Notes: generated by a model not told the origin, from the letters alone. A stretch of DNA of 64,000 nt from a bacterium (GCA_024229275.1 JAAESQ010000884.1:6120-70119); one strand, 5' to 3'. Shown: positions 3,267 to 61,508, counted from the first letter of the stretch. Numbers and translations: made by a program.

Positions 3267-3293
3267 GAGCAATGGGAAAGGAGGCCAGACATT

Positions 3294-4510: not shown

Positions 4511-4512
4511 AA

Positions 4513-4794
4513 TCAGAGCGGGTCCTTCCGGACGACTTTAAGGCTGGAATCGAACTCCACCTGATGATCTCGAAGTACTGCCGTGAAAGCCTCCCCAGCC
4601 CGCGTGCCGAATTCAGTAGCACGGTCTAGTAGTGCCTCCACGGACTTGTCTATTCCGAAGAGCTGAGCTGAGGCAGCGCCGCCATGGCCCTCGACACCAC
4701 CAAGCGCATCAACGATAGCTACCTTGTGTTCGATCGGGAGTTCAGCAACATGCTCCCTGATCCACAGCAACGCTTCTCTGAGATCATCGGTCAT
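4513..4794 (-). CDS. hypothetical helical protein (93 aa)
   Basis: Start taken at ATG 4794 (MTDDLREALLWIREH). The ORF-track version begins at 4845. Confidence 0.45.
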   Translation of the reverse strand: MTDDLREALLWIREHVAELPIEHKVAIVDALGGVEGHGGAASAQLFGIDKSVEALLDRATEFGTRAGEAFTAVLRDHQVEFDSSLKVVRKDPL

Positions 4795-5440: not shown

Positions 5441-5774
5441 GGTGTTCCTCCATTCCGGCCATCTTCAGTCGTAATTCCTCATTAGCCGCCATCAGGTGAG
5501 CCATGACCCCCTCGGCGCCAAGCCGCCGCACCTCCGGATAGGGCTTCGGGGGTTTGCGCACGAGGCCGTTGTTGCCCGCAAAACGATGGCACAAACGGAA
5601 GAAAAACAAGTAGGCTCGTGATCCCCCCTCAACAGGGCTCACGAGTGACTGGGTGAAATTACTGAAAACATAAGTCACGAGCCACGTCAGCGCCAACAAC
5701 ACACCGACGGGAACGCCAGGCAGAAGATAGGTGACCACCTGCGTGATCGGGTCCATTGCTTGTGTGGGGTCCAT
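5376..5774 (-). CDS. membrane protein (132 aa)
   Basis: Two hydrophobic segments, then an amphipathic C-terminus. The 3' end overlaps 4784..5440 by 65 nt. Confidence 0.45.
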   Translation of the reverse strand: MDPTQAMDPITQVVTYLLPGVPVGVLLALTWLVTYVFSNFTQSLVSPVEGGSRAYLFFFRLCHRFAGNNGLVRKPPKPYPEVRRLGAEGVMAHLMAANEELRLKMAGMEEHLAALNAADKPADTQPVGTADR

Positions 5775-5775
5775 G

Positions 5776-6267
5776 TCAGCCCTCCTCGACCACGTACCAG
5801 TAGCGCACTACTATCGACACGGGATGAGGGATAACCCGCAGCTCATACGTCTTGCCGTTTTCATGCACCTCCTGGTGCCCGTGAGGGAAGTTCACGTAGT
5901 GCGGCACGTAAAGCGGAGACATTGGGTCTCTGGAATTAACGGGGTTGCCAAACACAGGCCCCGTAGGCGGCGGCTGCTCCCAACTGTGCTTCGGTATGGG
6001 ATCAACCACAAGGTCTGGGCCAAACGTCAGCTGGATCTTGCCCTGGTCAACCGTGGCCCCGTCCTCAACTACCACGCGGATGACCGGATCGGGCGGGGGG
6101 TTCGTGGTGTCTCGGCCTCCGCCCCGGTAATTCTGCTCGGCATTGTCAAACCGATGATGGAAGTCGACTATTGCCGCATCGTTTGCGCGGTCAGCGTCCT
6201 GCTCCATTTTCGCCAGCATAAGCTGAAACACCGCTTCTGGTGAGAACTCATATAATGGTTCGCTCAT
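5776..6267 (-). CDS. hypothetical protein (163 aa)
   Basis: ORF track. Pro-rich centre. It starts 11 nt downstream of the 921-aa gene. Confidence 0.5.
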   Translation of the reverse strand: MSEPLYEFSPEAVFQLMLAKMEQDADRANDAAIVDFHHRFDNAEQNYRGGGRDTTNPPPDPVIRVVVEDGATVDQGKIQLTFGPDLVVDPIPKHSWEQPPPTGPVFGNPVNSRDPMSPLYVPHYVNFPHGHQEVHENGKTYELRVIPHPVSIVVRYWYVVEEG

Positions 6268-19700: not shown

Positions 19701-20033
19701 GGCGGGACCGATTGGCGGGGTGACGCCACTGCTGATGAAGTCCGGCTGTTCCGGCGCATCCACGAACGCGCCCCGCTGGAGCCGGTCCAGTTCCTGCTCG
19801 ATGCCGGGACGGGGATCTGCTGGCGTCGCTGTCAGATTCTCCAGGTCCAGCACCATCTCCGGCTCGGGGCGCAGCCTCGGATCGGCGAGAAACTTGTGCT
19901 GCTCCTCTTTCGAAAGTTCGGTGAACTCCGGATCCGCCCATTGGACCACCTTGACTTGCTCATCAAGTGGGAGTTCGCGGAATTCCGGGTCCAGAAGGAT
20001 CTGCGGAACTGGCGGATAGTTAAACGTGGCCAT
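13758..20033 (-). CDS. giant (2091 aa) multidomain virion-module protein with two ParB/Srx-like domains; putative ejected polyvalent protein
   Basis: Single uninterrupted ORF. ParB-like motifs are LVEGNFRLAASEKSG (~nt 17934-18200) and VVNGHHRLELAQRTG (~nt 17619-17870). There is a winged-helix stretch resembling FtsK-gamma, KTKLRREFGISLDQAGQVLDRMVNEGLV (~nt 18384-18536). The protein also has a Pro-rich N-terminus and a Gly-zipper hydrophobic region. It sits in the slot that T7 gp16 occupies. Confidence 0.7.
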   Translation of the reverse strand: MATFNYPPVPQILLDPEFRELPLDEQVKVVQWADPEFTELSKEEQHKFLADPRLRPEPEMVLDLENLTATPADPRPGIEQELDRLQRGAFVDAPEQPDFISSGVTPPIGPAETAVPIPPGAEQTGLPGIPTPPDPVLTAAAASTERALEPPSLAGTTEADVPGLLDTFMRAGSMGVHGVLSTAGSGFEALGTILEQTPDVAMRKTLLDEAGAPLLKAVGKEIQKFSKQAIEGSLPATAEKAEKFATDPLEAPWLLLDAEYIAHHAGNAGGSMLTFLMPMARMLKGINTVSGAAKATGALSLSESFVNAGETYDTAKEYGKSDKAAGDLFVESFAKDVPVTAALNFAGLLNPFIRNRGVRALAGGVSEPVQEVLQGATGRSVLQEAFPGMPEFYPWEGSGIEALGGFLGGVGAGAIVHPSAASKPKAKAEPPTEIPIDGEPPITEETGITETPWVRLKQGGETIFSGTREAADKLLRKKKAKPPKKPEAVPEEVSDELYGQISDWAKDEKRPYFGKTKLRREFGISLDQAGQVLDRMVNEGLVERQPDGSVKAPARGAEGAPTALDVSPAIEKPEEEAAGAPAPPPAKAGKGQALTEARIKEKPSAEWEQATMIPVEELRSIAEFDRRDPKQRPKTREGLPTEQYIDQLAADMAENGVETPLILWYDPKRNLVRLVEGNFRLAASEKSGHTQLPARIQVGEILSGGVTTPKALAGAVAPSSRVFELPVDSIAVDPVRFQFKRETGGKAGVSETLKDVEKFVPKLGGEISVWKDPADGKTYVVNGHHRLELAQRTGQKNIDVQYLDADTAQEARAEGALINIAEGRGSAIDAATLFRDMGITPEKLQEHSITLREPLAREGVALSRLTAPIFEMVTSGDLDLKHGAIIGDTLAEPADQKAALELLNRAQQKGKRLTNSEVETLARRVTRAERVSETEQTLFGDVEVLQNLAVEEAQLDSYIRKRLSREKKLFEMVGKEAAAAQLGEAGNVIQAERNAAIAKGVAESLEIYDKLALRSGPVDDAIRKGAKDLASGKNANAVREEAYGAVREAVSSLLGRKAQTVSTEGEETAGQLSGPAAPATPGLLEEAEAEPVELTPAEQRREGQRGSLSPKPIPDEMEGFESALPPEAAAEFEAAAEVPAPSAITKWKNRLSRGWHAVSRSYLELDRKLYGGLIFELQRLEKQRSVAIHDASQAVIDTVGSLDQKQYREFIEKVIIDDMVETHDRMTKDGTEWNDLPFKLTPEQLKESQKKATAAADADPAIQKAISEHKRYLNEAKTELIEAMRAIDRNDVAEKLNREDYYHHRVIEYIEEQVAAGNKDYASAARELSSPRSSYMRGRVANPLNFSTDYLQAQFEVLQQMMWDARRAEAIAWIEDEKNGINETGEFKQKAHEHNKSIVLPKLEAAAKEQDTTPEKLYKGLTQREIQDLAGEHWINPADPKRMVKAFGRRTHEVWQPDKGNVFYSGQTVEEKLAEQILEAGGKEVGITADDLRRALLVGGKRRQIILTKEVAATLKDFGDADRGKGVERAMKVAFGKTLRAWKQWMLLMPTRAIKYNLRNLSGDAEATFVGNPKAFRQLRRAMKDLKQMFFGDGEMSPELRTWFDRGGIGSLLQVQEIGDLNRLEQLESLVNRRHSKPNLLKRAWNSYYWGTVQKATNFRESVLRYANYLEYLDQLEKTDGQPANYGASLREEVDALDSIHDKAFKLSNDMIGAYDDISVAGQAIRKYFYPFWSFQEINARRYGRLYRNAASDGKLATTVGRKVLGKAASPYTLYRIGSLTVKVLAFKALMAALNDWRSPEEEKDIPENERQKTHIVLGRTEDGKVVTFNRIGIADDFLEWFGLDGTQEYARQYLNGRRTLREIAVEMAKSPANKIASGLMPQYKLIGELGFSRSAFPDVFKPRTIHDRQEFLATQLGVPKDAYRKLVGKPAPKNWATKALWKAVVYEYDPGEIAYYGAKDEVRRFNKDQGYGDVSWGGDSSGKSEALYNVKQAWRYKDGEALERHLAEYFALGGNLTGIKTSLQNMDPLNDIRKKDRKEFLESLDGEQKEQLTKAEEYWNEVLKGKVKEIMGAAKQVRTEVRAKEKAGGD

Positions 20034-40018: not shown

Positions 40019-40503
40019 CAGCTTATTGGGTAGATACCAGCATCCTTTGGCCGAAAGACCTTCAGCGACATAGAAGTTGCTGCAGCCCGAGACAATACGA
40101 AGCCCCTGCCTGTGTGTGTCGAATTCTCGATGATCTTGTGGCTGCGGCTCGCCTCTTGTAGTTGCTTCTTGCTGAAGACAAAGACGATGTCGTGGTTCCC
40201 GATGATGTAAAGCCAGCCATTGTCGTTTCTGAATATTCCGGAGTCGATCCAATGCTCATTCTCTGGATGAGACTTCTCTTGGACTTCGATGAATACATTG
40301 CGCGTCTCGGCTAGTAGGCGATCGAACTTGATTTCAAAACCGGCACGGTTCTCTCCCTTGTCGTCCTGGTAGAGTTTGCTCTTATACGGGACGATGGCAA
40401 TGCCATGAGCACAGAGAAGTTCGGTAACAAAATCCTCATATTCCGCGCCCTGTTCTAGTTTGCGTGCGTAGTACTCGTCGTAGTCGGAGCTTGGTTGCCC
40501 CAT
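40018..40503 (-). CDS. possible PD-(D/E)xK-type nuclease-like protein (161 aa)
   Basis: DDKGENRAGFEIKFD ... VFIEVQEK resembles D..ExK nuclease motifs. It is directly downstream of, and overlaps, the methyltransferase gene. The assignment is tentative. Confidence 0.35.
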   Translation of the reverse strand: MGQPSSDYDEYYARKLEQGAEYEDFVTELLCAHGIAIVPYKSKLYQDDKGENRAGFEIKFDRLLAETRNVFIEVQEKSHPENEHWIDSGIFRNDNGWLYIIGNHDIVFVFSKKQLQEASRSHKIIENSTHTGRGFVLSRAAATSMSLKVFRPKDAGIYPIS

Positions 40504-41531
40504 GTATCCCAGCCCTCGGGTGCTTCTCTGGCAAACACTTCGATCCGGTTGCCATTCGGATACAGCTTGTCTATCAACTCTCGGAAGTAAGCCGGTTTCT
40601 CGGAATGCTTGTGGGTACGCTGAATAGAGACAACGCTGTCGTGGAGTTCCTTCACGTCAGGCAGGCAGCTTCCCTTGGTGGCGATGAGCAGGTACTCGTG
40701 GCGCACTGAGACGTAGTTGCCATAATTGTGACGAACCTTGTCCCACACCATCGACGCCTTATACTCGAAGCCCCAAGCTTCGATGACTTGGATGGCGTCT
40801 GGTAGCATTGGCGATGTCGTCCAGAGGAACAGGACGGAATCCTCGGCTGACGCTTCGATGATCTGCTGCGCAAGCGGTGGTTTCGTCTCATCGCCGCCTT
40901 GCCCAACACGGCACAGTTCTGAGGTGCTCATCGTGCCATAGTGCCGCTCAGCGTGTCCGTAGTCATCAAGCCCTTTACTGCCGTACTCCCAAGGCGGATC
41001 GGCGTAGAGGACTCGATAAATGCCGTCAATGGGCTCCGGCGTCTCTACGTTGGCGTGCGCCAGCATTCGGTGGACCTCACTGATGGTTTTGCGGTTCTCG
41101 CGGATCTCTTCATGAAGCGGCGGGTGGTCATTTAGGAGATCGCAAAGCCAGACACACTCCACTGCTTCGTTCTTCGTCAACCCCAGCTCGGCCAGCGTGG
41201 GCGCGGTCTGTTCTAGCGGTTCCTGTCGGGTACCACCAGAAGCGTCCCGCCCCTTGAGTTGCCCTCTGGTGCCCTCGTTCTTGTCTGCGTCCTTCCAGAA
41301 GGCTCCGAGCGTCGTCCGGCCGTCGATCTTGACTGCGTGGGCGAAGTTGATGGCCTCTATCCCCATCCGCTGTCTTTTGGCATACTCCTCAGCAGCGTAG
41401 GCCATATCTGCCACTTTCTTGGCGTCGCCGATCGTCTTGACTTCGGAAAGAAGCTGCAGGGCCTTCTCTAACTTCTGCTGAAGTTCGTTGCTCTGCGGCT
41501 TGAACTCAATCACCGACTGTGCTGCTGGCAC
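40455..41531 (-). CDS. MT-A70 family N6-adenine DNA methyltransferase with N-terminal helical domain
   Basis: Catalytic motif YADPPWEY and downstream VLFLWTT, EAWGF, HSEKP. Start taken at GTG 41531, after AAAGGAA. The ORF-track version (to 41732) adds a junk-like Arg/Ser-rich 67 aa. Confidence 0.8.
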   Translation of the reverse strand: MPAAQSVIEFKPQSNELQQKLEKALQLLSEVKTIGDAKKVADMAYAAEEYAKRQRMGIEAINFAHAVKIDGRTTLGAFWKDADKNEGTRGQLKGRDASGGTRQEPLEQTAPTLAELGLTKNEAVECVWLCDLLNDHPPLHEEIRENRKTISEVHRMLAHANVETPEPIDGIYRVLYADPPWEYGSKGLDDYGHAERHYGTMSTSELCRVGQGGDETKPPLAQQIIEASAEDSVLFLWTTSPMLPDAIQVIEAWGFEYKASMVWDKVRHNYGNYVSVRHEYLLIATKGSCLPDVKELHDSVVSIQRTHKHSEKPAYFRELIDKLYPNGNRIEVFAREAPEGWDTWGNQAPTTTSTTHAN

Positions 41532-41565
41532 GTCAATATTCCTTTTGGTTGTTGACAATAGGCAT

Positions 41566-42036
41566 CTATACCTCCAGCGGAGCCTTATGATTGGCCCCAA
41601 TCTCCGAGATGACCGGTCTGTCGGTCGTCGTCGTTGGCCCCGCCGGAGGCAACCTGGGCCCATTGACATGGGCGTTGACCTGGAACTGTGTAAGGGAGCC
41701 ATGCTGGGCGGCGCAGACGGCCTGATCCGCACGCTGGAGCCAGCGCAGGCCTTTGGCGCGTCTGCGGGAGATGTAGTTTTTGCTCAATGGGACAGAGAGC
41801 CCGGCGCGGATCGCCCGTTGCGCAACCATGATGGGGACGAGCAGCAACAGGGAACGAAGCTTGGTGTGATGCCGATTGAAGTCGGCATCGACCATGCTCT
41901 GCTCGACCAATGGGCGCACTTCTTTCGCCGGGGCCGTAAAGAGGAGCAATCTAGAATCCCTGCAACGAACAGGGATTTTGACCGCTGGATTCTCGAAAAG
42001 GTAATTCAGGATGGCCGTGCGTAGGATTGCCTGCAT
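41566..42036 (-). CDS. hypothetical protein (156 aa)
   Basis: ORF track. It may be the first gene of the long minus-strand transcription unit. No family recognised. Confidence 0.4.
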   Translation of the reverse strand: MQAILRTAILNYLFENPAVKIPVRCRDSRLLLFTAPAKEVRPLVEQSMVDADFNRHHTKLRSLLLLVPIMVAQRAIRAGLSVPLSKNYISRRRAKGLRWLQRADQAVCAAQHGSLTQFQVNAHVNGPRLPPAGPTTTTDRPVISEIGANHKAPLEV

Positions 42037-43747: not shown

Positions 43748-44089
43748 ATGAGCAAGCGTAAAGCCTTCATGGACAAGCTGAAGACGATTTTCTGCGCCGT
43801 GTTCCGGCACAGCAACATCGAGGAGCAGTTCTGGGGCGAGCACTATTGCGGCCGTTGCCGCGCCAAGCTCGGAGACAGTCTGGCCGGGGTGTACAGGAAC
43901 AGCCAAGTGGTCGGCATCCACTGCGACTGCGAGGGCTGCCGGGAGCGGTACGCCAAGATGGGCTGGATGGACAAGTTTCTGGCTGCCAAGCCGGAATGGC
44001 TCGGCGAGCCGCCCGGCTATGCGGAGCGTAAGCGCAAAGAGATTGATCTGGATCTGGAGAGGTTGCCACCCGGAGTCGAGCAGTTATGA
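43748..44089 (+). CDS. Cys-rich small protein (113 aa)
   Basis: Start at ATG 43748 after GGGAGCGGA. CGRC ... CDCEGC cysteine clusters. Confidence 0.5.
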   Translation: MSKRKAFMDKLKTIFCAVFRHSNIEEQFWGEHYCGRCRAKLGDSLAGVYRNSQVVGIHCDCEGCRERYAKMGWMDKFLAAKPEWLGEPPGYAERKRKEIDLDLERLPPGVEQL

Positions 44090-44319
44090 CCCGCCGAACA
44101 CTACTCTCGCTGATCGGCGCCTTGGCTGGCGCAAAGGCGTGGGCGCGGGAGCGCATCGTGGTGCGGCTCCGACAACGGCAGCCGTTCTACCCTGATGCGC
44201 GCATCATCGTCGTCTCACCCGACAAGCAATCCGGAAGCAGGTTCTTGAAGGATGAGATTATGAGGATCACGCACGCCTCCGGTGGCCGGATCACAGTGCA
44301 GCGGGGGCGCAAAGCCTGA
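44086..44319 (+). CDS. small protein with twin-arginine-like signal (77 aa)
   Basis: MTRRTLLSLIGALAGAKAWA. ATGA overlap with the upstream ORF. Confidence 0.45.
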   Translation: MTRRTLLSLIGALAGAKAWARERIVVRLRQRQPFYPDARIIVVSPDKQSGSRFLKDEIMRITHASGGRITVQRGRKA

Positions 44320-44347: not shown

Positions 44348-44376
44348 TTGACACGGTAGCACGAATCGGCGAGAAT
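44348..44376 (+). promoter_or_regulatory. sigma70-type promoter for the rightward G-poor operon
   Basis: TTGACA (44348-44353), a 17-nt spacer, then GAGAAT (44371-44376). Confidence 0.5.
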
Positions 44377-44461
44377 GTGTGCGTCGTCCTCACGCGGCAC
44401 GACTGGCATGTTCGGCTTACAGTTGAATATCGCCGTCAAAGCTCAGGGGCGGGCTGAGGTT

Positions 44462-44496
44462 ACCAGACCAGTCAGCCTGCCCCGGTCTGGTCTGGT
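44462..44496 (+). promoter_or_regulatory. 5'-UTR hairpin immediately before the first island ORF
   Basis: ACCAGACCAG (44462-44471) pairs with CTGGTCTGGT (44487-44496). A second register is possible because of the GGTCT tandem. The hairpin ends 3 nt before GTG 44500 and is followed by only TTT. Confidence 0.4.
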
Positions 44497-44499
44497 TTC

Positions 44500-44805
44500 G
44501 TGGGTAAGAAAAAGCCCAAACGTCCGACATCCAAACCCCGCCGCACAAATTACCGCCTGAATCCCCGTCAAGATCCACCACCGCCCGGCCCCGTAACCCA
44601 ACACGTCCGGGACGGTGAGCCGCTCACCGAAACCGGCGCCAAGCTCCTACGCCCCGTCCCCAGACCACCCTTCGTCCGTACCCCACCCCCACCCGGCACC
44701 TGCATGGCCTGCCACGGTCATTTCCGCATGACCGACTACCTCGTCTGCGACACCTGCTTCCTCAAAGCCCGAAAAGTCCTTGAAGACTGGAGAGCCAGGC
44801 AATGA
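44500..44805 (+). CDS. basic/Pro-rich zinc-ribbon protein (101 aa)
   Basis: GTG start. CMAC..(12)..CDTC. G-poor coding strand. Confidence 0.5.
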   Translation: MGKKKPKRPTSKPRRTNYRLNPRQDPPPPGPVTQHVRDGEPLTETGAKLLRPVPRPPFVRTPPPPGTCMACHGHFRMTDYLVCDTCFLKARKVLEDWRARQ

Positions 44806-45140
44806 GCGAATCCCCCCGTTTCTCCCGCGTCCCCATCGAAATCCTCGAAGATCGCACCCTCAACCATTCTGACCTCCGCGTCTACGCCATTCTCAGCCTC
44901 CACGCCATCAGAACCAACCTCGTCTGGGTCGGCCAGCGCAGAATCGCCGAACTCGCCAGCATGAACCGCCGCCATGTCCGCCGTTCCCTCGAAAAACTCG
45001 CCCGCGCCGGCCATATCTCCGTCTCTATCCACAGAATCACCCGACGCCATGTGTTCCAGCTCAATAGCCCCGTCTTCCTCGAAGAACGCGCCAATCGCGA
45101 AATCCCCAGGTATCCAAAACCATCCCCAACCCTCCAATAG
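44802..45140 (+). CDS. winged-helix DNA-binding protein (lambda O N-terminal-like / replication-regulator-like), 112 aa
   Basis: VPIEILEDRTLNHSDLRVYAILSLHA...GQRRIAELASMNRRHVRRSLEKLARAGHI. ATGA overlap. Codons are almost all C- or A-ending. Confidence 0.55.
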   Translation: MSESPRFSRVPIEILEDRTLNHSDLRVYAILSLHAIRTNLVWVGQRRIAELASMNRRHVRRSLEKLARAGHISVSIHRITRRHVFQLNSPVFLEERANREIPRYPKPSPTLQ

Positions 45141-45295
45141 ACCCTGTGGAAAACTCCAGGTGCGCAAATTTTGCCGGGTACCAGGATGCGCCCATGAAAG
45201 GGCCCCTACAGGTACCCACGTATATACTCTATAGAAGGGGGCTCCCCTCCGAAAAGGTGCGGTCCAATCCCCCACCCCCGTGATACACTAACCCC

Positions 45296-45496
45296 ATGAG
45301 CCGTACCGTTTATCTCAAACTCGGAGAGTCGGTCTCTACCATCCACAACCCCGTCATCGCAGACTTGATCCGCGGTCCCCTTGGAACCCAGATCCGGATC
45401 ACACACGCCGGCGGCGAAATACTCACCGGCCCAATGCCACCCACCGAAGCTGAAACATTGGCCAACCGCCTTAATGAACCCCGACTAACCCCATGA
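45296..45496 (+). CDS. hypothetical small protein (66 aa)
   Basis: ORF track. Start context CTAACCCCATGA with no Shine-Dalgarno. Confidence 0.45.
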   Translation: MSRTVYLKLGESVSTIHNPVIADLIRGPLGTQIRITHAGGEILTGPMPPTEAETLANRLNEPRLTP

Positions 45497-45756
45497 CTTC
45501 CACCTTTACCGTCCAAGATGCCACCCTCCACCGCCCCGGCGACGCCATCTCCATCAACGGCCACACCTTCATCATCCGCTCCACCACCCCAACCACTATC
45601 CGCCTCTTTGCCCCCACCTTCTTCGGTCGCCTCGCCGGCCGTATCTTCCACTTCTTCATCAAGTTACGAGCTAAACTCTGGCTCTGGACCCGAATCGTCG
45701 AGTCCTACGACTCCACCGACCCCGAAGATTCCGCGTACCTGAGGAAACTGCTGTGA
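45493..45756 (+). CDS. hypothetical small protein (87 aa)
   Basis: ORF track. ATGA overlap within CTAACCCCATGA. Confidence 0.45.
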   Translation: MTSTFTVQDATLHRPGDAISINGHTFIIRSTTPTTIRLFAPTFFGRLAGRIFHFFIKLRAKLWLWTRIVESYDSTDPEDSAYLRKLL

Positions 45757-46172
45757 GCCCCACCTCCGAACTCCTCCTCCTCAAAGTCGCCCGCGTCCTC
45801 CTTGAGGAAACCTGTCGCCAACACACCCTCCTCACCGAACTCGATACCCAAATCTCCCACATCGAGAATGACCCTAACCCCATGACCCAGCAACTCCGTG
45901 CCCAACGCGCCCCTGACAACAACGCCTCCTTCAACTCCACCAATGAACTCCCCAAAACAGGCGCCTGCCGCCTCTGCGGCCGCCCAGATGTCGAACTCAC
46001 CCCTGTCGTCACACCCTACGTCAACATCGCCGTCTGTGAAACCTGCTGCTTGCTCGTCGCTTCCCACAGGCGCTTCTTCCTCGAAAACCAACCCCCAGCC
46101 CAACACCAAACTGAATCCAAGCCAGCCGAAACCAAGGCCAACTTGCCCGAATCGCAACGCCCTCAACCATGA
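45753..46172 (+). CDS. hypothetical protein with CxxC..CxxCC zinc-ribbon-like motif (139 aa)
   Basis: GTGA overlap. CRLCG ... CETCC. There is an internal in-frame Met at 45882 in the same CTAACCCCATGA context. Confidence 0.45.
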   Translation: MSPTSELLLLKVARVLLEETCRQHTLLTELDTQISHIENDPNPMTQQLRAQRAPDNNASFNSTNELPKTGACRLCGRPDVELTPVVTPYVNIAVCETCCLLVASHRRFFLENQPPAQHQTESKPAETKANLPESQRPQP

Positions 46173-46549
46173 AACTCTCCACCCGCTCCTCCAACTATCG
46201 CTCCGATAACGCCAGATTGTCCTACTGCCCCCCACTCCCCACTCTCCCGCCTCCTCACCTCCTTCCCTCTAACCCCTCCCGTATCACCTCCCCAGCCGAG
46301 GCTTACTCCATCCCTTACAACACCGCCCTCCAATTCGACTCCCTCGCCCGCGCCCGCTCCATCATCACCACAATTATCGACAACGAAAAAGGTGACCTCT
46401 GGTACCTTACTCCAGGCCCCGGCAGAACTCCACCAAGAGACCGCTCCGGCCGCTTTATCAGGGTCTACGTCTTCCTCTACAACATCCTCAACCACCTCGA
46501 TGACCAGCTACAAACTTGCCTCCAACCACCCCCTGAACCGAGACCGTAA
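46169..46549 (+). CDS. hypothetical Pro/Ser-rich protein (126 aa)
   Basis: ORF track. ATGA overlap. Confidence 0.4.
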   Translation: MKLSTRSSNYRSDNARLSYCPPLPTLPPPHLLPSNPSRITSPAEAYSIPYNTALQFDSLARARSIITTIIDNEKGDLWYLTPGPGRTPPRDRSGRFIRVYVFLYNILNHLDDQLQTCLQPPPEPRP

Positions 46550-46553
46550 CCCC

Positions 46554-46625
46554 ATGACCAGACGTCACTTATTCGCCACCTTCGTTGCCGCCATAACCGG
46601 TGCCAATCTTCCCCAATCTCAATAG
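46554..46625 (+). CDS. possible 23-aa micro-ORF with twin-arginine-like sequence
   Basis: MTRRHLFATFVAAITGANLPQSQ. The ATG sits in TAACCCCATGA directly after the previous stop. Confidence 0.25.
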   Translation: MTRRHLFATFVAAITGANLPQSQ

Positions 46626-46647
46626 GTTACCCCATGAAACTCCCACC

Positions 46648-46833
46648 ATGACCCCAACCCAACTCCGCATTCTCCATATCTCTTCCATCGACGCCTCCCT
46701 TATCGTCAAACGCTTGCTCCAACCCCCCATCTCCGACGACGGTGCCGCCATCCTCCGCCGTGTCTACCAATCCCTTCAAATTCAACAACTCGCCACCCTC
46801 GCCGCCCTTCGTTGCGTTGCCGATTCTCAATGA
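46648..46833 (+). CDS. hypothetical small protein (61 aa)
   Basis: Start taken at ATG 46648 (MTPTQLRILHISS). It is the last gene of the rightward G-poor operon. Confidence 0.4.
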   Translation: MTPTQLRILHISSIDASLIVKRLLQPPISDDGAAILRRVYQSLQIQQLATLAALRCVADSQ

Positions 46834-46943
46834 CCCCTACCTCCTCCCACAACCCCTGAAACCCTAGAAAATACTCCACTTCCTACCCCTCTACTTTTTC
46901 CCGAATCACAACCCCCAAACCTTAAACGTCGAGAACGGCGGAA

Positions 46944-46996
46944 GGGTTTTTAGGGGGGGGGCGCCCCTTGGGGGGGGCGACATCGCACGCAGGGGG
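46944..46996 (+). repeat. G-tract cluster (GGG, G9, G8, G5) with embedded palindrome GGGGCGCCCC at the convergence point
   Basis: Sequence GGGTTTTTAGGGGGGGGGCGCCCCTTGGGGGGGGCGACATCGCACGCAGGGGG. It lies where the plus strand switches from C-rich to G-rich. It may form a G-quadruplex or hairpin, or act as a bidirectional terminator. Confidence 0.5.
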
Positions 46997-47174
46997 CCGC
47001 CGAACCACCTACCAGGGCAGCAGCAGCACGTTGACCGGCCGACGACTCACCGACAGCAGTGCTTCGAGGTGCTCTCAGCCATGGCTCTACCGATAATCAC
47101 CATTATCGTGAGTGCTCCATAGCGCACCACTGGCCACCACAGGGCATGCCTCTAAGTGCTACAGTGCGCTGAGC

Positions 47175-47498
47175 TTACGAGCGTCCGGGGGGAAGCGGGG
47201 GATATGCTGGTGTGGGGCGTTCTGGGCCTGTTGAGCTAGGTGCGGTTCTCTCGGGCAATGGTGCAACGAGCACGGGGTGTAAGAGGTGCTCAACCCACCA
47301 ACGAGGGATCCGGAGGCGTGCGCTCCGTTCAGTCCCAGCCTTACAGACTGGAACTTGTCCCCTGTAGCACTTGATGCGAAGGGACCTCGGGGTGATACGG
47401 AGGATGTTCGCAACCTCTTCAATAGTAAGGAGTTGGATGTCTTCGAGTCTCCGCTGGGGTTGGTTGGTGTGCTGGTCCAGGAGCGGGTTAGCGCTCAT
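47175..47498 (-). CDS. excisionase/AlpA-type helix-turn-helix protein (107 aa)
   Basis: LLTIEEVANILRITPRSLRIKCYRGQVP..RIPRWWVEHLL. Start at ATG 47498 in the context CTAACCATGAG. Confidence 0.55.
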   Translation of the reverse strand: MSANPLLDQHTNQPQRRLEDIQLLTIEEVANILRITPRSLRIKCYRGQVPVCKAGTERSARLRIPRWWVEHLLHPVLVAPLPERTAPSSTGPERPTPAYPPLPPGRS

Positions 47499-47568
47499 GG
47501 TTAGAGTGTAGCACAGTGTTGAGGCCTTCGTTACCAACGACGACAGCCGCGATGGCGGCGGGTTGTGG

Positions 47569-48027
47569 TCATAGGAATAAGGCGGTGGCGAGTGTAGCGC
47601 CGACGATGGAACCACAAACGAAGGCAAGCCAGGGTTTTATGGGCTGGGGATCGGGTGGTGGTGTGGAGTCGTGGAATGGCTGATCTTTGACGGGCCCGAA
47701 CTGGTGGCTACCTTCGTGGTCTTGGTCGAGGATGCAACGTTGGGTGGCTAGGGTGGCACAGCCTTGACCGGCGGAGCATTGCTGGGGTGAGTTCTGCGGC
47801 GGTTCCCATTGTTCGAATAGCTTGCAGTGGCCCTTGTTGATGGTGGAACAGGGAGCGTAATCGGGTCGGCCGGAGACGGGGTTAAGTTCTATTGGGGATG
47901 CGAGGCAGTGAGTAGGAGAGGTGGAACCGCGCCAAGCTTCTGAGAGGGAAGGGCGAGAGTCTTTGGTGATGTGGCCGTAGGTGGGGTCGAAATAGCTGGC
48001 GTGCTTGCAGTTGGCGCAGATGGTCAT
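47569..48027 (-). CDS. Cys-rich protein with C-terminal membrane anchor (152 aa)
   Basis: Start at ATG 48027 (MTICANCKHASYF). Multiple Cys. The C-terminus WLAFVCGSIVGATLATALFL is hydrophobic. Confidence 0.45.
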   Translation of the reverse strand: MTICANCKHASYFDPTYGHITKDSRPSLSEAWRGSTSPTHCLASPIELNPVSGRPDYAPCSTINKGHCKLFEQWEPPQNSPQQCSAGQGCATLATQRCILDQDHEGSHQFGPVKDQPFHDSTPPPDPQPIKPWLAFVCGSIVGATLATALFL

Positions 48028-48046
48028 GGCTGTCCGTTTGGGTGGT

Positions 48047-48421
48047 TCATGGTTGCAGCGGCCTCCGGCAATTGGGGCAGGTTGTACCTGGGATGCCCGT
48101 GACAAATATTACGTAGCAATGTGGACAGGCAAACGGGCCGTGAGGTGGTGATTCCTGGGTGCTGGGGCTCGCTGGTGGGGTTTGTGGGGGTTCTGGCGAT
48201 GTCTCGGGCGTTTGAGGGGGATCGGTGGGCTGAGGGGGTTGTTCGGGGGTTTTACGGGGTTTGCGGTTGCGGCGTTTGCCAGCTGTGGCACGTCCACCGG
48301 CTGCGGCTATCTCGGAGCGGCGTTTGGGGGAAAGCTTGGCGGCGCGGCGCCTGGCCAGTAGGGACATAGCGTACGAGATCGTCTGTTGATCGTCGCACTC
48401 GTCCTGTGGTTCGTCGGGCAT
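48047..48421 (-). CDS. small basic protein with Pro/Thr linker and zinc ribbon (124 aa)
   Basis: RRAAKLSPKRRSEIAAAGGRA is followed by a PQPTDPPQTPETSPEPPQTPP linker, then CPHC..(14)..CPNC. It is the first gene of the leftward G-poor operon. Confidence 0.5.
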   Translation of the reverse strand: MPDEPQDECDDQQTISYAMSLLARRRAAKLSPKRRSEIAAAGGRATAGKRRNRKPRKTPEQPPQPTDPPQTPETSPEPPQTPPASPSTQESPPHGPFACPHCYVIFVTGIPGTTCPNCRRPLQP

Positions 48422-48484
48422 CGTTTCGTGGCCGGCGACGGCTCAGGGAAGCCGCATACCTCGTCAGGTTGCCGGCCGAGTTCC

Positions 48485-48513
48485 ATGATATCATTATGGT
48501 TAGCTTGCTGCAA
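48485..48513 (-). promoter_or_regulatory. sigma70-type promoter for the leftward G-poor operon
   Basis: On the minus sense: TTGCAG (48513-48508), 17 nt, TATCAT (48490-48485). It overlaps the palindrome CTTGCTGCAAG (48504-48514). Confidence 0.45.
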
Positions 48514-48544
48514 GTGGTAATGTGAAAATAGTTGAAAAAAAAGC

Positions 48545-48573
48545 TTGACACGTGGTTTAGCTTGCGGTAAGCT
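48545..48573 (+). promoter_or_regulatory. sigma70-type promoter, probably giving a leaderless mRNA for 48580..48828
   Basis: TTGACA (48545-48550), 17 nt, TAAGCT (48568-48573). ATG 48580 lies 7 nt after the -10 hexamer. AGCTTG copies sit at 48502, 48542, 48559 and 48570. Confidence 0.45.
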
Positions 48574-48579
48574 TGATGC

Positions 48580-48828
48580 ATGATGGCGAACACGAAACAG
48601 GAAACAGACAAGGCAGTTTGGCTACTCGAACAAAGGTGCTATCGGCGGGCAGACTACTCGGAAGCGAGCGTTGCTTTCTATCTGGCAAACGACAGCATAA
48701 TGGCGGTTCTCAGGTTGCCCGCGGGCGAGGATATCGCCCCGTCAGTGGTTCGCGGTAACGGAGCCGTGGCTGCCTACAAGAACTGGTGTTCCGACCAAGA
48801 GCGTATCGGTCGCCGGATCAATGCCTAA
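48580..48828 (+). CDS. hypothetical small protein (82 aa), first gene of rightward operon
   Basis: ORF track. Normal (balanced G/C) composition resumes here. Confidence 0.45.
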   Translation: MMANTKQETDKAVWLLEQRCYRRADYSEASVAFYLANDSIMAVLRLPAGEDIAPSVVRGNGAVAAYKNWCSDQERIGRRINA

Positions 48829-51902: not shown

Positions 51903-52120
51903 CGAAACAGCGTTTAGGCTTTGCGTCATCCCTGCTGTTTTGCATAGGCGCGGCGTTGCTGATGGCTCTTTTCCTGATGGCTGGCAAACCAACCTGGAAG
52001 GAGATATACCAACAGAACGAAATCCACTCCCTCAAGACCCAGCGCGAGCAGTGCCGAAGAGATCATCTGAGGAAACTGCGGGAATGTAATCAGGAACTCC
52101 GAGATCTGAGGAGAAAATGA
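51899..52120 (+). CDS. single-pass membrane protein with coiled coil (73 aa)
   Basis: TM LGFASSLLFCIGAALLMALFLMA. ATGA overlaps on both sides. Confidence 0.5.
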   Translation: MTKQRLGFASSLLFCIGAALLMALFLMAGKPTWKEIYQQNEIHSLKTQREQCRRDHLRKLRECNQELRDLRRK

Positions 52121-53034
52121 CCGCCCTAACCCCAGTACGCCCGAACCTCGAAGAACTGGTGGCTGTGGCTACTGCGGCGGTGGACTCGGAGCATAGCCGG
52201 CGCGCGTACTCCCGAGCGCTCCGGGACTTCCTGTCGTGGTGCCAAGCGCGAGAACTGCCGTTTGAGCGGGCGACGGTGCAGCGGTACCGCATGGAGCTCG
52301 CCCAGCAGAAGGCCCCGGCGAGCGTGAATCAGGCGCTCAGCGCAATCAAGTCCCTTGCCCGTGAAGCGATGGACCGTTTTGTGCTACCAGACGCCACAGG
52401 TGCCGCTATCGTCCAGGTACGGAGCGTTCCTCAGCGCGGCCGACGCGCGGGTAACTGGCTCACCTTGGACCAAGCCAAGCGGCTGATTGACGCGCCGCCG
52501 GCCAACAGTTTGTCAGGACTCCGGGACCGGGCACTGCTCGGGGTGTTGCTCGGATCCGGAGTCCGCCGGCAGGAGTGCGCCAGCATCCAGGTGGAGCAGG
52601 TAGTCCGGCGCTCCGGCCGGTGGGTGGTGCTCGACCTCGCGCGGAAGCGCGATCGGGTGGCCACCGTGCCGCTGCCTGCCTGGGTGCGGCCCCGGCTCAA
52701 AGCATGGTGGGCGGCTGCCGACATCACCGCCGGGCCGGCGTTCCGCGCGGTCGGGCAAGGTGACCGGCTGCTGGGGCCGCTCAGCGATTCCGGGGTCTGG
52801 TGGGTGGTCCAGGCGTGGGGCCAGCGGCTGGGGTTGGAGGTCAGACCTCACGACCTCCGCAGAACTGGCGCCGCCCTGGCGCTCGATGGCGGGGCGAGTC
52901 TCCGCCAGATTCAGGTGATGCTCGGCCATGCCTCCATCCAGACCACCGAGCGGTACCTCCGGACCATCACAGAACTGCACGATCCGGCGTGCGATAAGAT
53001 CGAGCTAGGGGGAAAGGAGAAAGAGGGAGAATGA
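52117..53034 (+). CDS. int: tyrosine recombinase / phage integrase (XerC/D-like, 305 aa)
   Basis: N-terminal SAM-like core-binding region (RAYSRALRDFLSWC). Catalytic-domain motifs are RDRALLGVLLGSGVRRQE, HDLRRTGA and LGHASIQTTERYL. Confidence 0.85.
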   Translation: MTALTPVRPNLEELVAVATAAVDSEHSRRAYSRALRDFLSWCQARELPFERATVQRYRMELAQQKAPASVNQALSAIKSLAREAMDRFVLPDATGAAIVQVRSVPQRGRRAGNWLTLDQAKRLIDAPPANSLSGLRDRALLGVLLGSGVRRQECASIQVEQVVRRSGRWVVLDLARKRDRVATVPLPAWVRPRLKAWWAAADITAGPAFRAVGQGDRLLGPLSDSGVWWVVQAWGQRLGLEVRPHDLRRTGAALALDGGASLRQIQVMLGHASIQTTERYLRTITELHDPACDKIELGGKEKEGE

Positions 53035-54665: not shown

Positions 54666-55449
54666 TCCGCCACTTACTCCCGTCAAGGCTCTGCGCCACC
54701 CGTGTCGACTTCTGGCTGAATAGCTGCGGGTATAGATCCCAGTCCTGCGGACAGTCCGCGCCGAACTCGCACGCCTCCCGGTGCAGACGCCAGCCGTTCT
54801 TGTGGACCAGGTTCGTGAAGATAGCCTGCTCTGTGCGGTGCTCGCGGAAGCCACGGTGCTCCGGCGCCAGCACGCTCGGGTCGAAGGTCTGGCAGTGCCG
54901 GTTCACACAGTAGGCCAGCCATTCCTGCAGGAACTGGTTGATGCGCCATCTCCCTTTCTCTAAGAGTATGAACCGCGCGACTGCGCAGCCGGCATCTCGG
55001 TAACGCTTGGTGTCTTGCCCCATAGCGATCAGGCAGTCGCGTTTGTTCCAGTCGCCGTTGCGGAGCGCCCGGTCCTTCCCGGTCGCCATGAATACCATGG
55101 AGCCGAGATGGTCCTCGCAGATGTCGTACAGCACCCCGAGGTCGGCAATCGGGTAGGTGTCGGCATCTACGTAGAGCACAATGTCACCGTCGCTCATGTA
55201 GTCCCGCATGGCGCACTGGATGAGGAAAGGTTTCCAACTGAACCATCCAAAGCCCCGGCCGCGGCCTTCGTTGCCCGGCCCACGGTGCAACCAGAGCCAC
55301 TGATTCTGATGATAGAAATCCGTCCGCTTCAGCCAAACATCATCGTAGACCCGTACCTCGTCCACGCCGAAGTCAGGGGCACGCTTGATGATCTTCTCAG
55401 TCGTCTTGTCGTAGGCCGCGCCGCTGAACGTGATGAGGAGCCGCTTCAC
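54658..55449 (-). CDS. putative nucleotide-diphospho-sugar glycosyltransferase (263 aa)
   Basis: FSWKPFLI..GDIVLYVDADT (DxD) after a Rossmann-like N-terminus. ATGA overlap with the transaldolase gene. Confidence 0.5.
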   Translation of the reverse strand: MKRLLITFSGAAYDKTTEKIIKRAPDFGVDEVRVYDDVWLKRTDFYHQNQWLWLHRGPGNEGRGRGFGWFSWKPFLIQCAMRDYMSDGDIVLYVDADTYPIADLGVLYDICEDHLGSMVFMATGKDRALRNGDWNKRDCLIAMGQDTKRYRDAGCAVARFILLEKGRWRINQFLQEWLAYCVNRHCQTFDPSVLAPEHRGFREHRTEQAIFTNLVHKNGWRLHREACEFGADCPQDWDLYPQLFSQKSTRVAQSLDGSKWRNV

Positions 55450-56165
55450 AGCGTGTACCCCGCCTTCTGCGCGTCGTCGTGGAACTGGCGCACGGTTTCC
55501 AGTGAACGCTGTTCCAAGGATGCCCCGATACTGTCCAACTTGGCCAGTATCTCCGGGGAGACGGTGATGATGTCGCAGCCCGCCCGATCAGCATGGATTA
55601 TGTCGTAGACCTGCCGCGTGCTCGCCCAAAGCAACTGGGCTTCACCCCAGCCAGAATACAAGGTCACTGTCCAGTCCGCCCGCTTCATGTGTTCTACGGG
55701 ATCGCCCCCGAGGTCAGCAATTCTCCCTGCGAAGACCGAAAGAATCATCGATGTCTTGTCGCTGTAGGCACCGAGCGCAAGCTGCAACTGATAGGCCGTG
55801 AAAATACTGGTGATGTTAAGCTTAATGCCGTCGGCGGCAAGCTCGGCGATAATACTCTCTGTCGTCGCCCCCTGTGTGTTGACGATCGGGATCTTGACGT
55901 AGACGTTGTCATCCCACGCAGAAATCACTCGGGCCTGCTTCGCCATCTCATCCACATCATCGGTGACAACCGGGAACGAGATCGGCTTACCACCAGCCGC
56001 TGGCAACGCCTGCTCAACGAACTCCTGGTAGTTTGTCCAGCCAGCCTTGGCCATCAGTGTAGCATTGGTCGTGTAGCCATTCACCAGCGGATGATCGTAG
56101 TACTTCAGCTCCGCGCTATCGAGATATATCTCGATATTCGTTTCCTCGATCTGTAGGGGATTCAT
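55446..56165 (-). CDS. tal: transaldolase / fructose-6-phosphate aldolase family protein (TalC/FSA-like, 239 aa)
   Basis: It is collinear with E. coli FSA from memory. Shared motifs are IYLDSA, NGYTTNATL (GVTTNPS), the YVKIP catalytic-Lys motif, NITSIF, SVFAGRI and AGCDIITVSPE. Confidence 0.75.
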   Translation of the reverse strand: MNPLQIEETNIEIYLDSAELKYYDHPLVNGYTTNATLMAKAGWTNYQEFVEQALPAAGGKPISFPVVTDDVDEMAKQARVISAWDDNVYVKIPIVNTQGATTESIIAELAADGIKLNITSIFTAYQLQLALGAYSDKTSMILSVFAGRIADLGGDPVEHMKRADWTVTLYSGWGEAQLLWASTRQVYDIIHADRAGCDIITVSPEILAKLDSIGASLEQRSLETVRQFHDDAQKAGYTL

Positions 56166-60242: not shown

Positions 60243-60408
60243 GGGAATCAGTCCTATTTGCGAGCATCTCCTTTACTGCCGCCTCAATGGCTTGGATGAT
60301 CGTGGCCGGGGGTGTCAATTTCAATAGACGCCCAAGAAAAGCAGCGCAGTCGCATCCGCTACGGTTCCCGCAGACAACGCAAGTCTTACTGATTGTCACA
60401 TCAGGCAC
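60235..60408 (-). CDS. small Cys-containing protein (57 aa)
   Basis: GTG 60408 follows GGAGG. CVVCGNRSGCDC. It overlaps both neighbours by 8 nt. Confidence 0.35.
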   Translation of the reverse strand: MPDVTISKTCVVCGNRSGCDCAAFLGRLLKLTPPATIIQAIEAAVKEMLANRTDSHA

Positions 60409-61336
60409 GCTGCACCTCCGGCATCTGGCGCACGTGCAAGTCCTTGGGCCATTCGGACATGTCGGAGCCTTTACTGGAGAGGATGGGCTCTGTAGCGTTT
60501 TTCCATTCAACCTCATCAGGCCATCGCGAGGTCTGGCGATAGCGTGGCACATCAAATGGCTTCGCCCCCAACTGCTTCACAAACACTGGCAGCCCAGTCT
60601 CTTTGCACTGCCGCACCACCTGCCGAATCCACGACACGTTGCACGGCCGCGCTCCCGGGCCGCTCTCTCCGCCGACGATCACCCAGTCGATGCCCTCAAA
60701 GTTGAGCGTGCCGAGGTCTTCCAGCAACGGCTCCAAACTGAGGAACCGGATAGCGGCTGGCGTCTTGCGCAGCCAGTCGATGCGGTCAAGCGTGGCGCGG
60801 TTCTCAACGGAGACGCCGAGGTGGATGTTAGAAAACGGCAGTGACGGGAGCGAGTGCTTCCCTCCGAATGAAGGATGACCTTGACCTGGGCGAAGGCGAT
60901 CAGCGGCTAGCTCGATTTGATTGTGTGTGTCCCTCGTCCAATGCCGTTTGTACATCTGCTCCGCCCGCTTCGTGAGCACCTGAAACGTGTGCTGTGGGCA
61001 CAGCGCCATCACCGCGAAGACTTCGTCTATCACCTTGTCCGGTAGCGACTCGTGGAACAGGTCCGACATCGAGTTGACGAACACCGTGCGCGGCTTGCGC
61101 CAGTGCAGCGGAGCCTGCAATCGCTCAGGAGCGAGCGTTATCTTGCCGGTCCATTTCAGCGGCTGCCCCTTCGGTGTAACAACATCCCGGTATAAGTCGC
61201 TGATGACAGGATCTGGATTGTAGGCCAACCGACGTGCCTCTCGAATCGCATAGCAATTCTTGCAGCCAGGACTGCATTTCTCGCATCCAACGGTCGGATT
61301 CCAGGCTTCCTCGGTCCACTCAATCTTAGTCGGCAT
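60401..61336 (-). CDS. phage Gp37/Gp68 (DUF5131)-like protein
   Basis: Start at ATG 61336. TKIEWTEEAWNPTVGCEKCSPGCKNCYA is the signature N-terminus of this family, as recalled from memory. Confidence 0.65.
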   Translation of the reverse strand: MPTKIEWTEEAWNPTVGCEKCSPGCKNCYAIREARRLAYNPDPVISDLYRDVVTPKGQPLKWTGKITLAPERLQAPLHWRKPRTVFVNSMSDLFHESLPDKVIDEVFAVMALCPQHTFQVLTKRAEQMYKRHWTRDTHNQIELAADRLRPGQGHPSFGGKHSLPSLPFSNIHLGVSVENRATLDRIDWLRKTPAAIRFLSLEPLLEDLGTLNFEGIDWVIVGGESGPGARPCNVSWIRQVVRQCKETGLPVFVKQLGAKPFDVPRYRQTSRWPDEVEWKNATEPILSSKGSDMSEWPKDLHVRQMPEVQRA

Positions 61337-61508
61337 CCTGACCTCGCTTCCGCACGCACTCGGGATGCGGGCAGTGCTGATCGCACCAGAATCCCGTAGT
61401 GACAACGTGGATCGGGTCTGCAGCTTCGAGGAAGTCACAATCCGGATGTTGGCAACAGGCCCCGATGATGCTACCGCTCATGACGTGGTCCGGGCGCTTG
61501 TCAGGCAT
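61326..61508 (-). CDS. small Cys/His-rich protein (60 aa)
   Basis: CCQHPDC ... CDQHCPHPEC. It overlaps both neighbours by 8-11 nt. Confidence 0.4.
   Translation of the reverse strand: MPDKRPDHVMSGSIIGACCQHPDCDFLEAADPIHVVTTGFWCDQHCPHPECVRKRGQDAD

Follow-up and report, generated by a model that had tools for sequence, protein, structure and literature searches.

The window analysed here is a 64-kb stretch of DNA from an uncultured temperate phage, and the element under study is an island of small regulatory genes at 44495-48431 (3.9 kb). In this island G has been exchanged for C on one strand, the plus strand in the left arm and the minus strand in the right arm. The phage carries an SU10-type capsid gene, an MT-A70 methylase and a tyrosine integrase (52117-53034). 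To the left of the island the minus-strand structural genes extend as far as 43622, and to its right a plus-strand block continues to the integrase. Two convergent operons make up the island, with promoter-like sites upstream of each. The features are given below, where skew is GC skew, (G-C)/(G+C).

44348..44376, plus strand: promoter-like site TTGACA-17-GAGAAT (10/12 in a consensus scan), at the outer edge of the left arm.
44385..44499, plus strand: unbiased leader with a skew of 0.00.
44462-44471 and 44487-44496, plus strand: perfect 10-bp inverted repeat (hairpin), directly before the GTG start of 44500..44805.
44500..44805, plus strand: basic, Pro-rich protein of 101 amino acids with a C-terminal zinc ribbon, CMAC...CDTC; third-position skew -0.59.
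44802..45140, plus strand: winged-helix HTH_36 protein of 112 amino acids, the conserved anchor of the module (Pfam E 6.5e-8, 32.7 bits, cutoff 25).
45141..45295, plus strand: intergenic region (155 nucleotides, nt) with a weaker skew of -0.19, containing CCCACGTATATAC at 45215-45227.
45296..46549, plus strand: four translationally coupled ORFan genes; third-position skew -0.61 to -0.80.
46555..46833, plus strand: chain of mini open reading frames (mini-ORFs) 46555-46626 and 46634-46651, then a gene for 61 amino acids, 46648-46833, as read from the sequence.
46834..46935, plus strand: G-poor tail past the last plus-strand gene; G 6%, C 44%, skew -0.76.
46936..47174, no strand: junction of about 240 nt where the skew changes sign (skew 0.01); balanced composition, 65% G+C.
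47175..47498, minus strand: HTH_17-like (excisionase/AlpA-type) protein of 107 amino acids; third-position skew -0.27, the least biased island gene.
47569..48027, minus strand: Cys-rich protein of 152 amino acids with a hydrophobic C-terminus, a putative membrane-anchored ORFan; third-position skew -0.70.
48047..48421, minus strand: Pro-rich protein of 124 amino acids, encoded first in the minus-strand operon; zinc ribbon CPHC...CPNC at its C-terminus, third-position skew -0.39.
48520-48493, minus strand: promoter-like site of the minus-strand operon, TTACCA-16-CATAAT, from the consensus scan, at the outer edge of the right arm.
48500-48582, no strand: three operator-like copies of TTAGCTTGCTGCAAG from a repeat search, flanking this promoter-like site, with the core palindrome CTTGC-N-GCAAG.

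The genes of the left arm are tightly packed. The stop codon of 44500..44805, a gene with no Pfam or PHROG match, overlaps the start of 44802..45140 in an ATGA, and the coupled ORFans (45296-45496, 45493-45756, 45753-46172 and 46169-46549) are joined by ATGA or GTGA overlaps. The third of these has CxxC pairs of the zinc-ribbon kind. The HTH_36 (PF13730) protein scores above the curated cutoff, and its AlphaFold model (predicted local distance difference test score 89.8) is predicted to form three helices and a beta-hairpin wing, a winged-helix fold. The gene has G at 0.07 and C at 0.65 of third codon positions (G3 and C3). A winged helix had been proposed for this gene from the sequence alone, together with an Xis/AlpA-like helix-turn-helix for 47175..47498; the latter falls just below the HTH_17 cutoff (24 bits against 27, E 4.8e-5). 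With a match to a helix-turn-helix protein of phrog_10045 (E 2e-4), its resemblance to HTH_17 is likely to be real though sub-threshold. The homologue search for the Cys-rich protein 47569..48027 found none. About 12 small proteins had been counted; there are ten ORFs and several mini-ORFs, and the CxxC zinc ribbons stand.

Further elements lie between and beside these genes. The frame 46600-46833 has G3 0.05 and C3 0.56. The tail that follows is fully biased although it holds at most one mini-ORF of nine codons and is otherwise untranslated; the longest G-free run on the plus strand of the window (35 nt) sits in it. Runs of nine and eight G at 46953-46977 bracket the palindrome GGGGCGCCCC where the operons converge; they are slippage-prone and could belong to a two-way terminator. 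The junction also contains the palindrome CCGATAAT-CACC-ATTATCG at 47090-47108. At the far edge, the TTAGCTTGCTGCAAG copies separate the minus-strand operon from the plus-strand genes toward the integrase, and probably mark a genetic-switch region. Mini-ORFs of 5-23 codons occur in both arms (46555-46626, 46634-46651 and 46830-46859 on the plus strand, 48050-48024 and 47572-47531 on the minus strand). They are linked to adjacent genes through ATGA overlaps or lie only a few bases from them, an arrangement that suggests termination-reinitiation relays. One mini-ORF product, MTRRHLFATFVAAITGANLPQSQ, resembles a truncated twin-arginine signal peptide; full-length proteins with an N-terminus of this type are encoded at 44086-44319 in the window and at 3736-4311 and 2443-2682 of L017, a related locus described below. 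Long antisense ORFs rich in Gly, Val, Glu, Asp and Ala (110-179 amino acids; 44736-45275, 45705-46235 and 46163-46495, all minus strand) are, because antisense GNN codons never stop, the expected shadows of NNC codons, and are not to be annotated as genes.

The compositional bias is regional and strong. Plus-strand skew in 1-kb bins is -0.39 and -0.47 between 45 and 47 kb and +0.23 and +0.19 between 47 and 49 kb, while the remaining bins of the window all lie within +/-0.11. Exact plus-strand counts give 1027 C and 399 G for 44495-46930 (skew -0.44), and 502 G and 258 C for 47170-48431 (skew +0.32). In 541 control windows of 2.4 kb outside 44-49 kb, the mean is -0.012 with a standard deviation of 0.047 and a range of -0.10 to +0.08. 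The cumulative GC-skew minimum of the whole window falls at about 47 kb. The depletion of G and gain of C on one strand is real and extreme. A sequence-only reading of this DNA had described a strongly G-poor, C-rich island whose bias changes sign where the coding strand switches, and both statements are borne out, the controls reaching a magnitude of at most 0.10. Its hand count for 45493..45756, about 44 G in 264 nt and more than 100 C, agrees with the exact 44 G and 111 C.

The same picture emerges gene by gene. Sense-strand skew in the ten island genes runs from -0.23 to -0.55, which places them outside the distribution of the 44 other genes (z = -5 to -11). Third-position skew is -0.59 to -0.80 in seven of them and -0.27 and -0.39 in two, against a range of -0.27 to +0.17 in the other phage genes; the tenth, 46648-46833, has no valid value as it was scored out of frame, and its own-frame G3 is 0.05. 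Structural genes are balanced in G and C, as had been noted. Throughout both arms one codon phase has C at 0.5-0.8 and G at 0.03-0.12. Because of this three-base periodicity and the ATGA-coupled starts, the island ORFs are coding, and a non-coding or artefactual island is ruled out.

The bias amounts to a replacement of one base by another. Base frequencies at four-fold degenerate sites are A 0.138, C 0.642, G 0.066 and T 0.154 in the island, compared with A 0.148, C 0.373, G 0.329 and T 0.149 in the other phage genes: C takes the place of G, and A and T are unchanged. G-ending codons make up 3-10% of four-fold families in the island versus 20-46% elsewhere, and GAA, AAA and CAA make up 65-77% of their families versus 29-39%, so that codon counts support the avoidance of G-ending codons seen earlier. 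The odds of A over G are raised 5.0-fold at two-fold purine-ending codons and 4.6-fold at four-fold sites; those of C over T are raised 1.7-fold at four-fold and 1.4-fold at two-fold sites. All three codon positions are affected. At the first, G falls from 0.37 to 0.24 and C rises from 0.24 to 0.37, with enrichment of Pro, Arg, His and Leu and depletion of Gly, Ala, Val, Asp and Glu; Pro increases from 5% to 12.5% of residues and Gly drops from 8.4% to 4.2%. The relative abundances of dinucleotides in the island and the rest of the phage are close for GA (1.14 vs 1.17) and GG (0.97 vs 0.94), likewise match for CG, AG and TG, and differ modestly for GC (0.92 vs 1.04) and GT (1.02 vs 0.83). By this test no G-containing dinucleotide is avoided beyond base composition. 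The pressure acts on single nucleotides and not on the choice of transfer RNA (tRNA), because all codon positions shift, the nearly untranslated tail is fully biased, and the odds at four-fold and two-fold sites agree. In a four-state substitution model every exit from G must rise about 4-7 fold, and a fit with transitions only is poor.

Loci related through the HTH_36 gene are informative. A profile search found 69 representative homologues of this family of small proteins at E<1e-10. The family alignment being too diverse, DNA was located with a hand-made degenerate DNA pattern and was recovered for eight further members, nine loci counting the window. No close relatives of the phage were found in the cultured-phage collection, IMG/VR or JGI metagenome contigs, and the neighbourhoods of MT-A70 homologues (L001-L005) are unrelated phages with no skew islands. 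Third-position skew of the HTH_36 gene is -0.88 in L022, -0.83 in L019, -0.80 in both the window and L017, -0.57 in L016, -0.35 in L018, -0.19 in L021, -0.18 in L023 and -0.15 in L020. The bias is thus clear in five of the nine loci (-0.57 to -0.88). These strongly biased loci share 40-59% protein identity and occupy separate branches of a star-like tree. Because the bias recurs at such distances, where synonymous sites are presumably saturated, the sequence comparison argues that it must be actively maintained and not passively inherited. The HTH_36 gene is the sole homologous gene between the loci in tblastn searches, and unrelated neighbours are biased too (L017 3736-4311, L022 1642-1881, L016 5520-5708 and L016 6205-6564). 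The bias is positional, since non-homologous neighbours of the HTH_36 gene share it.

The relatives also repeat parts of the architecture. L016, from an Actinomycetes metagenome-assembled genome, reproduces it as a whole: it has skews of -0.31 to -0.36 on the HTH_36 side followed by +0.26 to +0.35, and its positive arm is a convergent minus-strand operon. L017 has TTGACA-17-CATAAT upstream of its HTH_36 operon, the counterpart of the left promoter-like site of the window. Both the window (47090-47108) and L016 (6066-6085) have a single copy of the palindrome CCGATAAT-N4/5-(A)TTATCG, located close to the skew switch and 80-140 nt beyond where the minus-strand operon ends; it is a candidate for a protein-binding site common to the two. 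Downstream of the HTH_36 gene, CCCACGTATATAC is present in the window (45215-45227) and in L022 (2353-2365), and pairs of direct repeats of 15-19 nt followed by an AT-rich patch occur in L022 and L017 (5204-5250). This arrangement could be an operator or an origin. In all, the candidate origin elements shared with relatives come down to one palindrome and one short TATATAC patch.

In the window the effects of strand and of transcript sense are indistinguishable, the left-arm genes being all plus and the right-arm genes all minus. The relatives separate them. In L017, where the plus strand of the zone is C-rich, the minus-strand gene 3124-3309 (HTH_17, 40.8 bits) has G3 0.71 and C3 0.11, and 2876-3151 on the same strand has G3 0.55. 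In L022, the minus-strand gene 2373-2732, with a canonical codon-position profile and a signal-peptide-like N-terminus, has G3 0.59 and C3 0.10. In L016, 6900-7151 on the plus strand has G3 0.57 and lies in the G-rich arm. Genes oriented toward the switch point are C-rich and genes oriented away from it are G-rich. Because opposite-strand genes in relatives are G-rich, the bias appears to belong to the strand and not to the sense of each gene; across the nine loci that form the evidence base it would be a property either of a DNA strand or of a transcript that crosses antisense genes, and a larger sample is needed. The earlier statement that the bias tracks transcript sense and not a DNA strand is contradicted by the G-rich opposite-strand genes of L017 and L022.

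What has been observed, namely a composition bias that acts on nucleotides, recurs in relatives and depends on neither gene orientation nor gene content, is explained best, in our tentative view, by a substitution pressure that is strand-specific, depends on position and has its anchor in the HTH_36 module. We consider this quite possible, and nothing stronger. The steps would be as follows. (i) The pressure could come from mutation or repair that is biased in an unusual way, or from selection that acts on the DNA strand as such. (ii) Its polarity would be origin-like, the G-rich strand running 5' to 3' away from the junction at about 47.0 kb on both sides. (iii) Protein constraint would filter it, so that the strongest effect falls at third codon positions. 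(iv) It would nevertheless be strong enough to alter amino-acid use. (v) G-poor, nearly structure-free messenger RNAs (mRNAs), a C>G composition like that of Rho-utilization (rut) sites, and starts that mostly have no Shine-Dalgarno sequence would be by-products. We infer a cause that is positional and mutational, in preference to RNA selection, and the junction or the HTH_36 region would be a replication-related site.

Several findings are consistent with such a site. Skew passes from -0.44 to +0.32 across about 47.0 kb, the negative-to-positive switch of an origin, and, at the loci with enough flanking sequence, the polarity from negative on the HTH_36 side to positive beyond is clear in the window and L016 and weak in L017 and L022. 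The HTH_36 protein has weak initiator matches (phrog_8102, E 7e-4; an annotated phage initiator, E 1e-3 by tblastn). Its predicted structure matched regulators and initiators alike, N-terminal domains of plasmid RepA scoring a template-modelling (TM) score of about 0.6 with E 4-8e-3 alongside many MarR/ArsR-type regulators. The protein has only 112 amino acids and no helicase-recruiting domain.

A considerable body of evidence weighs against this interpretation. DnaA-box-like sites are at chance level (21 found, 18 expected), and tandem-repeat and direct-repeat searches found no iterons; these searches gave no hallmarks of an origin, and the junction, at 65% G+C, is not AT-rich as an unwinding element would be. 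In the window the zone begins and ends abruptly, at promoter-like sites and first start codons: a gene 180 nt upstream has a third-position skew of 0.00 and both 5' leaders are unbiased. Such edges and leaders have the look of a property of transcription units. A clean gradient is absent, because the weakest bias in the right arm is that of the gene nearest the junction. Four of the nine family members show little or no bias, and an unbiased gene, 4441-4653, lies within the biased zone of L017. Most relative loci are short metagenomic contigs, and among the reversed-bias genes Pfam identifies L017 3124-3309 alone, the L022 gene being recognized by its sequence features. The signature is not that of classical deamination, as A and T at four-fold sites are unchanged and transitions alone fit poorly. 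Finally, to our knowledge no bacterial or phage process raises all exits from G on one strand.

Known strand asymmetries resemble the island in part. Origin-associated GC skew likewise turns from negative to positive at one point, with the G-rich strand running 5' to 3' outward on both sides, and a weakly initiator-like winged-helix gene adjoins the switch in the island. The island differs in being confined to 1.3-2.5 kb per arm with sharp edges, in having no excess of T over A at four-fold sites, and in its lack of DnaA boxes and iterons; replication skew is absent from the remainder of the phage. Usual chromosomal skew is several-fold below that of the island, where third-position values reach -0.8. 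Replication skew had been set aside earlier on the ground that the bias flips within 4 kb; this goes too far, as a flip from negative to positive is just the polarity of an origin, and it is the effect size, the sharp edges and the absent change in A and T that sit badly with replication. In vertebrate mitochondria, where genes in the light-strand sense are depleted of G through single-stranded exposure, sense-strand G3 is likewise below 0.1 in almost every gene, amino-acid composition follows and opposite-strand genes have reversed bias. There, however, the changes are transitions, A rises with C and the whole replicon is involved, whereas the island swaps G for C with A and T unchanged in a small part of a double-stranded DNA phage genome. 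Transcription-associated mutational asymmetry (C-to-T on the non-transcribed strand) shares with the window a bias co-extensive with transcription units, but it produces a sense strand rich in G+T; in the island C greatly exceeds G on the sense strand and A equals or slightly exceeds T. Deamination of the non-template strand or in classical replication has the wrong sign or the wrong signature. That exposure of the non-template strand would act in the opposite direction had been reasoned correctly.

Selection on RNA is the main alternative, possible though doubtful. It holds that the dominant early or regulatory transcripts have been selected to be G-poor, C-rich and unstructured. Such transcripts would allow translation that is independent of Shine-Dalgarno sequences and proceeds by termination and reinitiation; they might act as giant Rho-loading sites, transcription continuing only while ribosomes follow closely; and genes antisense to them would turn G-rich in their own sense. 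Edges and switch of the bias in the window do match the promoter-like sites and the convergence of the operons. Predicted folding of sense RNA is weak, -20 and -26 kcal/mol per 120 nt in the two arms versus -37 for other genes, and the antisense RNA of the island folds like ordinary genes. In windows of 78 nt, C/G exceeds 1 in 99% and 96% of cases in the two arms, the composition of a rut site, and exceeds 2 in 70% (left arm) and 43% (right arm) versus 0.3% elsewhere; Rho-loading sites are generally described by their C>G skew, absent structure and YC richness (PMC6144790). The most G-poor stretch is the tail 46834-46935, which, apart from its mini-ORF, would be free of ribosomes, the rest of the island being tightly coupled coding sequence. 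Unchanged A and T and a pure shift in log-odds suit selection as well as mutation. In L016, a minus-strand promoter-like site at 7298-7269 could carry a transcript over the G-rich plus-strand ORF.

Translation signals bear on the same alternative. A Shine-Dalgarno sequence is absent at most island starts, while GGAG-type sequences are present at many other phage genes, and C-rich ribosome-binding sites can function in vitro (PMC3310771). In addition to the ATGA coupling, an 11-mer junction motif, TAACCCCATGA, has four exact copies and one with a single mismatch, all in the left arm (45289-45299, 45486-45496, 45875-45885, 46547-46557 and 46627-46637). In most copies the motif overlaps both a stop codon and a start codon, and one copy lies within 45753-46172; by our estimate, local composition predicts about 0.001 exact copies. 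Unstructured mRNA suited to initiation without Shine-Dalgarno sequences had been among the meanings suggested for the island; the folding energies demonstrate it as a consequence, and as a purpose it is conjectural.

Other observations speak against selection on RNA. It requires hypothetical antisense transcripts over real genes in L017 and L022, and a search for a plus-strand promoter-like site upstream of the L017 zone found none. G is not depleted in the 5' leaders, the part of a transcript in which structure has most effect on initiation; the L017 operon begins with an unbiased gene; and TAACCCCATGA is missing from the related loci. The four family members without the bias count here as well. 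Selection at each site must be strong enough to change the amino-acid composition of about ten unrelated ORFans, and a role for Rho presupposes a host that has Rho, the one hint to the host being the Actinomycetes assembly that holds L016. Rut sites are about 60-90 nt long and usually untranslated. The island shares with them C-rich, G-poor, unstructured RNA over at least 78 nt, most extreme in the nearly untranslated stretch after the last gene; it differs in that the property spans 3.7 kb of translated sequence and in relatives is found antisense to real genes.

Selection on the DNA itself is unlikely. In one form, a G-rich template and C-rich non-template strand would suppress R-loops during inward transcription and leave outward transcription R-loop-prone; in another, strand polarity would serve a translocase or helicase, and our estimate covers both forms jointly. 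The strand-based bias with its centre of symmetry and the palindrome shared at the switch point count in its favour. G-rich non-template strands reportedly predispose to R-loops, and the inward genes of the island are R-loop-averse. Known R-loop regions (CpG-island promoters and immunoglobulin switch regions) have a comparable kilobase-scale G/C asymmetry tied to transcription direction, but they are eukaryotic and G-rich on the non-template strand, whereas the non-template strand of the main island genes is C-rich. The idea is purely inferential, the consensus scan showed no evident outward promoters at the junction, and the bias is at the level of mononucleotides with no enriched motif. Runs of the G-quadruplex type form one cluster in the right arm and are absent from the left, so a G-quadruplex design is rejected.

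A recent acquisition from a very different donor, whose composition has not yet drifted to that of its new genome, had been among the meanings proposed, and is very unlikely. The island proteins are ORFans and its edges are sharp, as a foreign origin would have it. Its G+C of 0.58-0.60, however, is no different from that of the other phage DNA, its dinucleotide relative abundances are similar as well, a search for flanking direct repeats found none, and the integrase lies 3.7 kb off in DNA of normal composition. A single recent transfer cannot give the same bias at 40-59% identity among different neighbours, and no class of donor is known to us that combines a G3 near 0.07 with a third-position G+C near 0.7.

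Translational selection, or evasion of a factor that recognizes a short G-containing motif such as GA, GG or GGAG (sequences targeted by RNA-modifying toxins, by RNases or in internal Shine-Dalgarno-like pauses), is highly improbable and largely refuted: C-ending and A-ending codons match G34 and U34 anticodons and the capsid gene too prefers C at third positions (C3 0.50), but G still stands at 0.34 of the four-fold sites of that gene, the bias extends to codon positions 1 and 2 and to the largely untranslated tail, which excludes tRNA or codon optimization, the opposite-strand genes of relatives are G-rich, and the matching relative abundances of GA, GG, CG, AG and TG exclude avoidance of short G motifs, Shine-Dalgarno-like ones included, and lend no support to the earlier suggestion of escape from G-dependent RNases or toxins as far as short recognition motifs are concerned.

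Strand asymmetry itself is well known; it is normally weak and genome-wide, and is ascribed to deamination during replication or transcription. The asymmetry of the island is by contrast local, of about animal-mitochondrial strength and different in signature, and it recurs around the same anchor gene. The sequence-only reading knew of no phage module with this property, and likewise no description of comparable islands was found in the literature. As far as can be told, a local swap of G for C of mitochondrial strength, recurring around one gene family in double-stranded DNA phages, appears to be new. A mutational cause, if true, points to a strand-specific lesion or polymerase process not yet described, at a defined phage locus; a selective cause, if true, means natural operons built almost free of structure and coupled to Rho or translation. 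It is possible, though we put it forward with reserve, that in soil phages and prophages an undescribed strand-specific process turns G into C over a kilobase-scale stretch around a small winged-helix gene, or that early transcripts there are deliberately made nearly G-free, structure-free and Rho-gated. The former could be local hypermutation or repair linked to the start of replication. Either would reshape the codon and amino-acid use of whatever genes land there, and the same reserve attaches to the reading as a whole.

Public gene calling fails in the skewed zones. In L017, about 950 nt (5195-6147) have no called gene, and in L022 a G-rich shadow ORF of 200 amino acids is called at 2140-2742, overlapping a more convincing candidate in another frame of that strand. 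Such modules are probably under-annotated in metagenomes because automatic gene callers fail in this way.

The only result of a search for pairs of TAACCCCATGA was a 48-nt tandem repeat that has no relation to the island. This repeat, in a family of viral contigs from IMG/VR (L006-L015), has five copies, each with TAACCCCATGA, and shows no unusual skew. No known RNA families were matched and no tRNAs were found. Elsewhere in the phage, the minus-strand gene 13758-20033 encodes a protein of 2091 amino acids, residues 704-1052 of which match the C-terminal part of phrog_21 and, weakly, a ParB-like family. The product looks like a polyvalent protein and may be carried in the virion. A transaldolase-family gene (55446-56165, E 1.4e-33), the MT-A70 adenine methyltransferase (40455-41732) and a DUF5131 protein (60401-61438), all on the minus strand, may provide auxiliary metabolic and DNA-modification functions.

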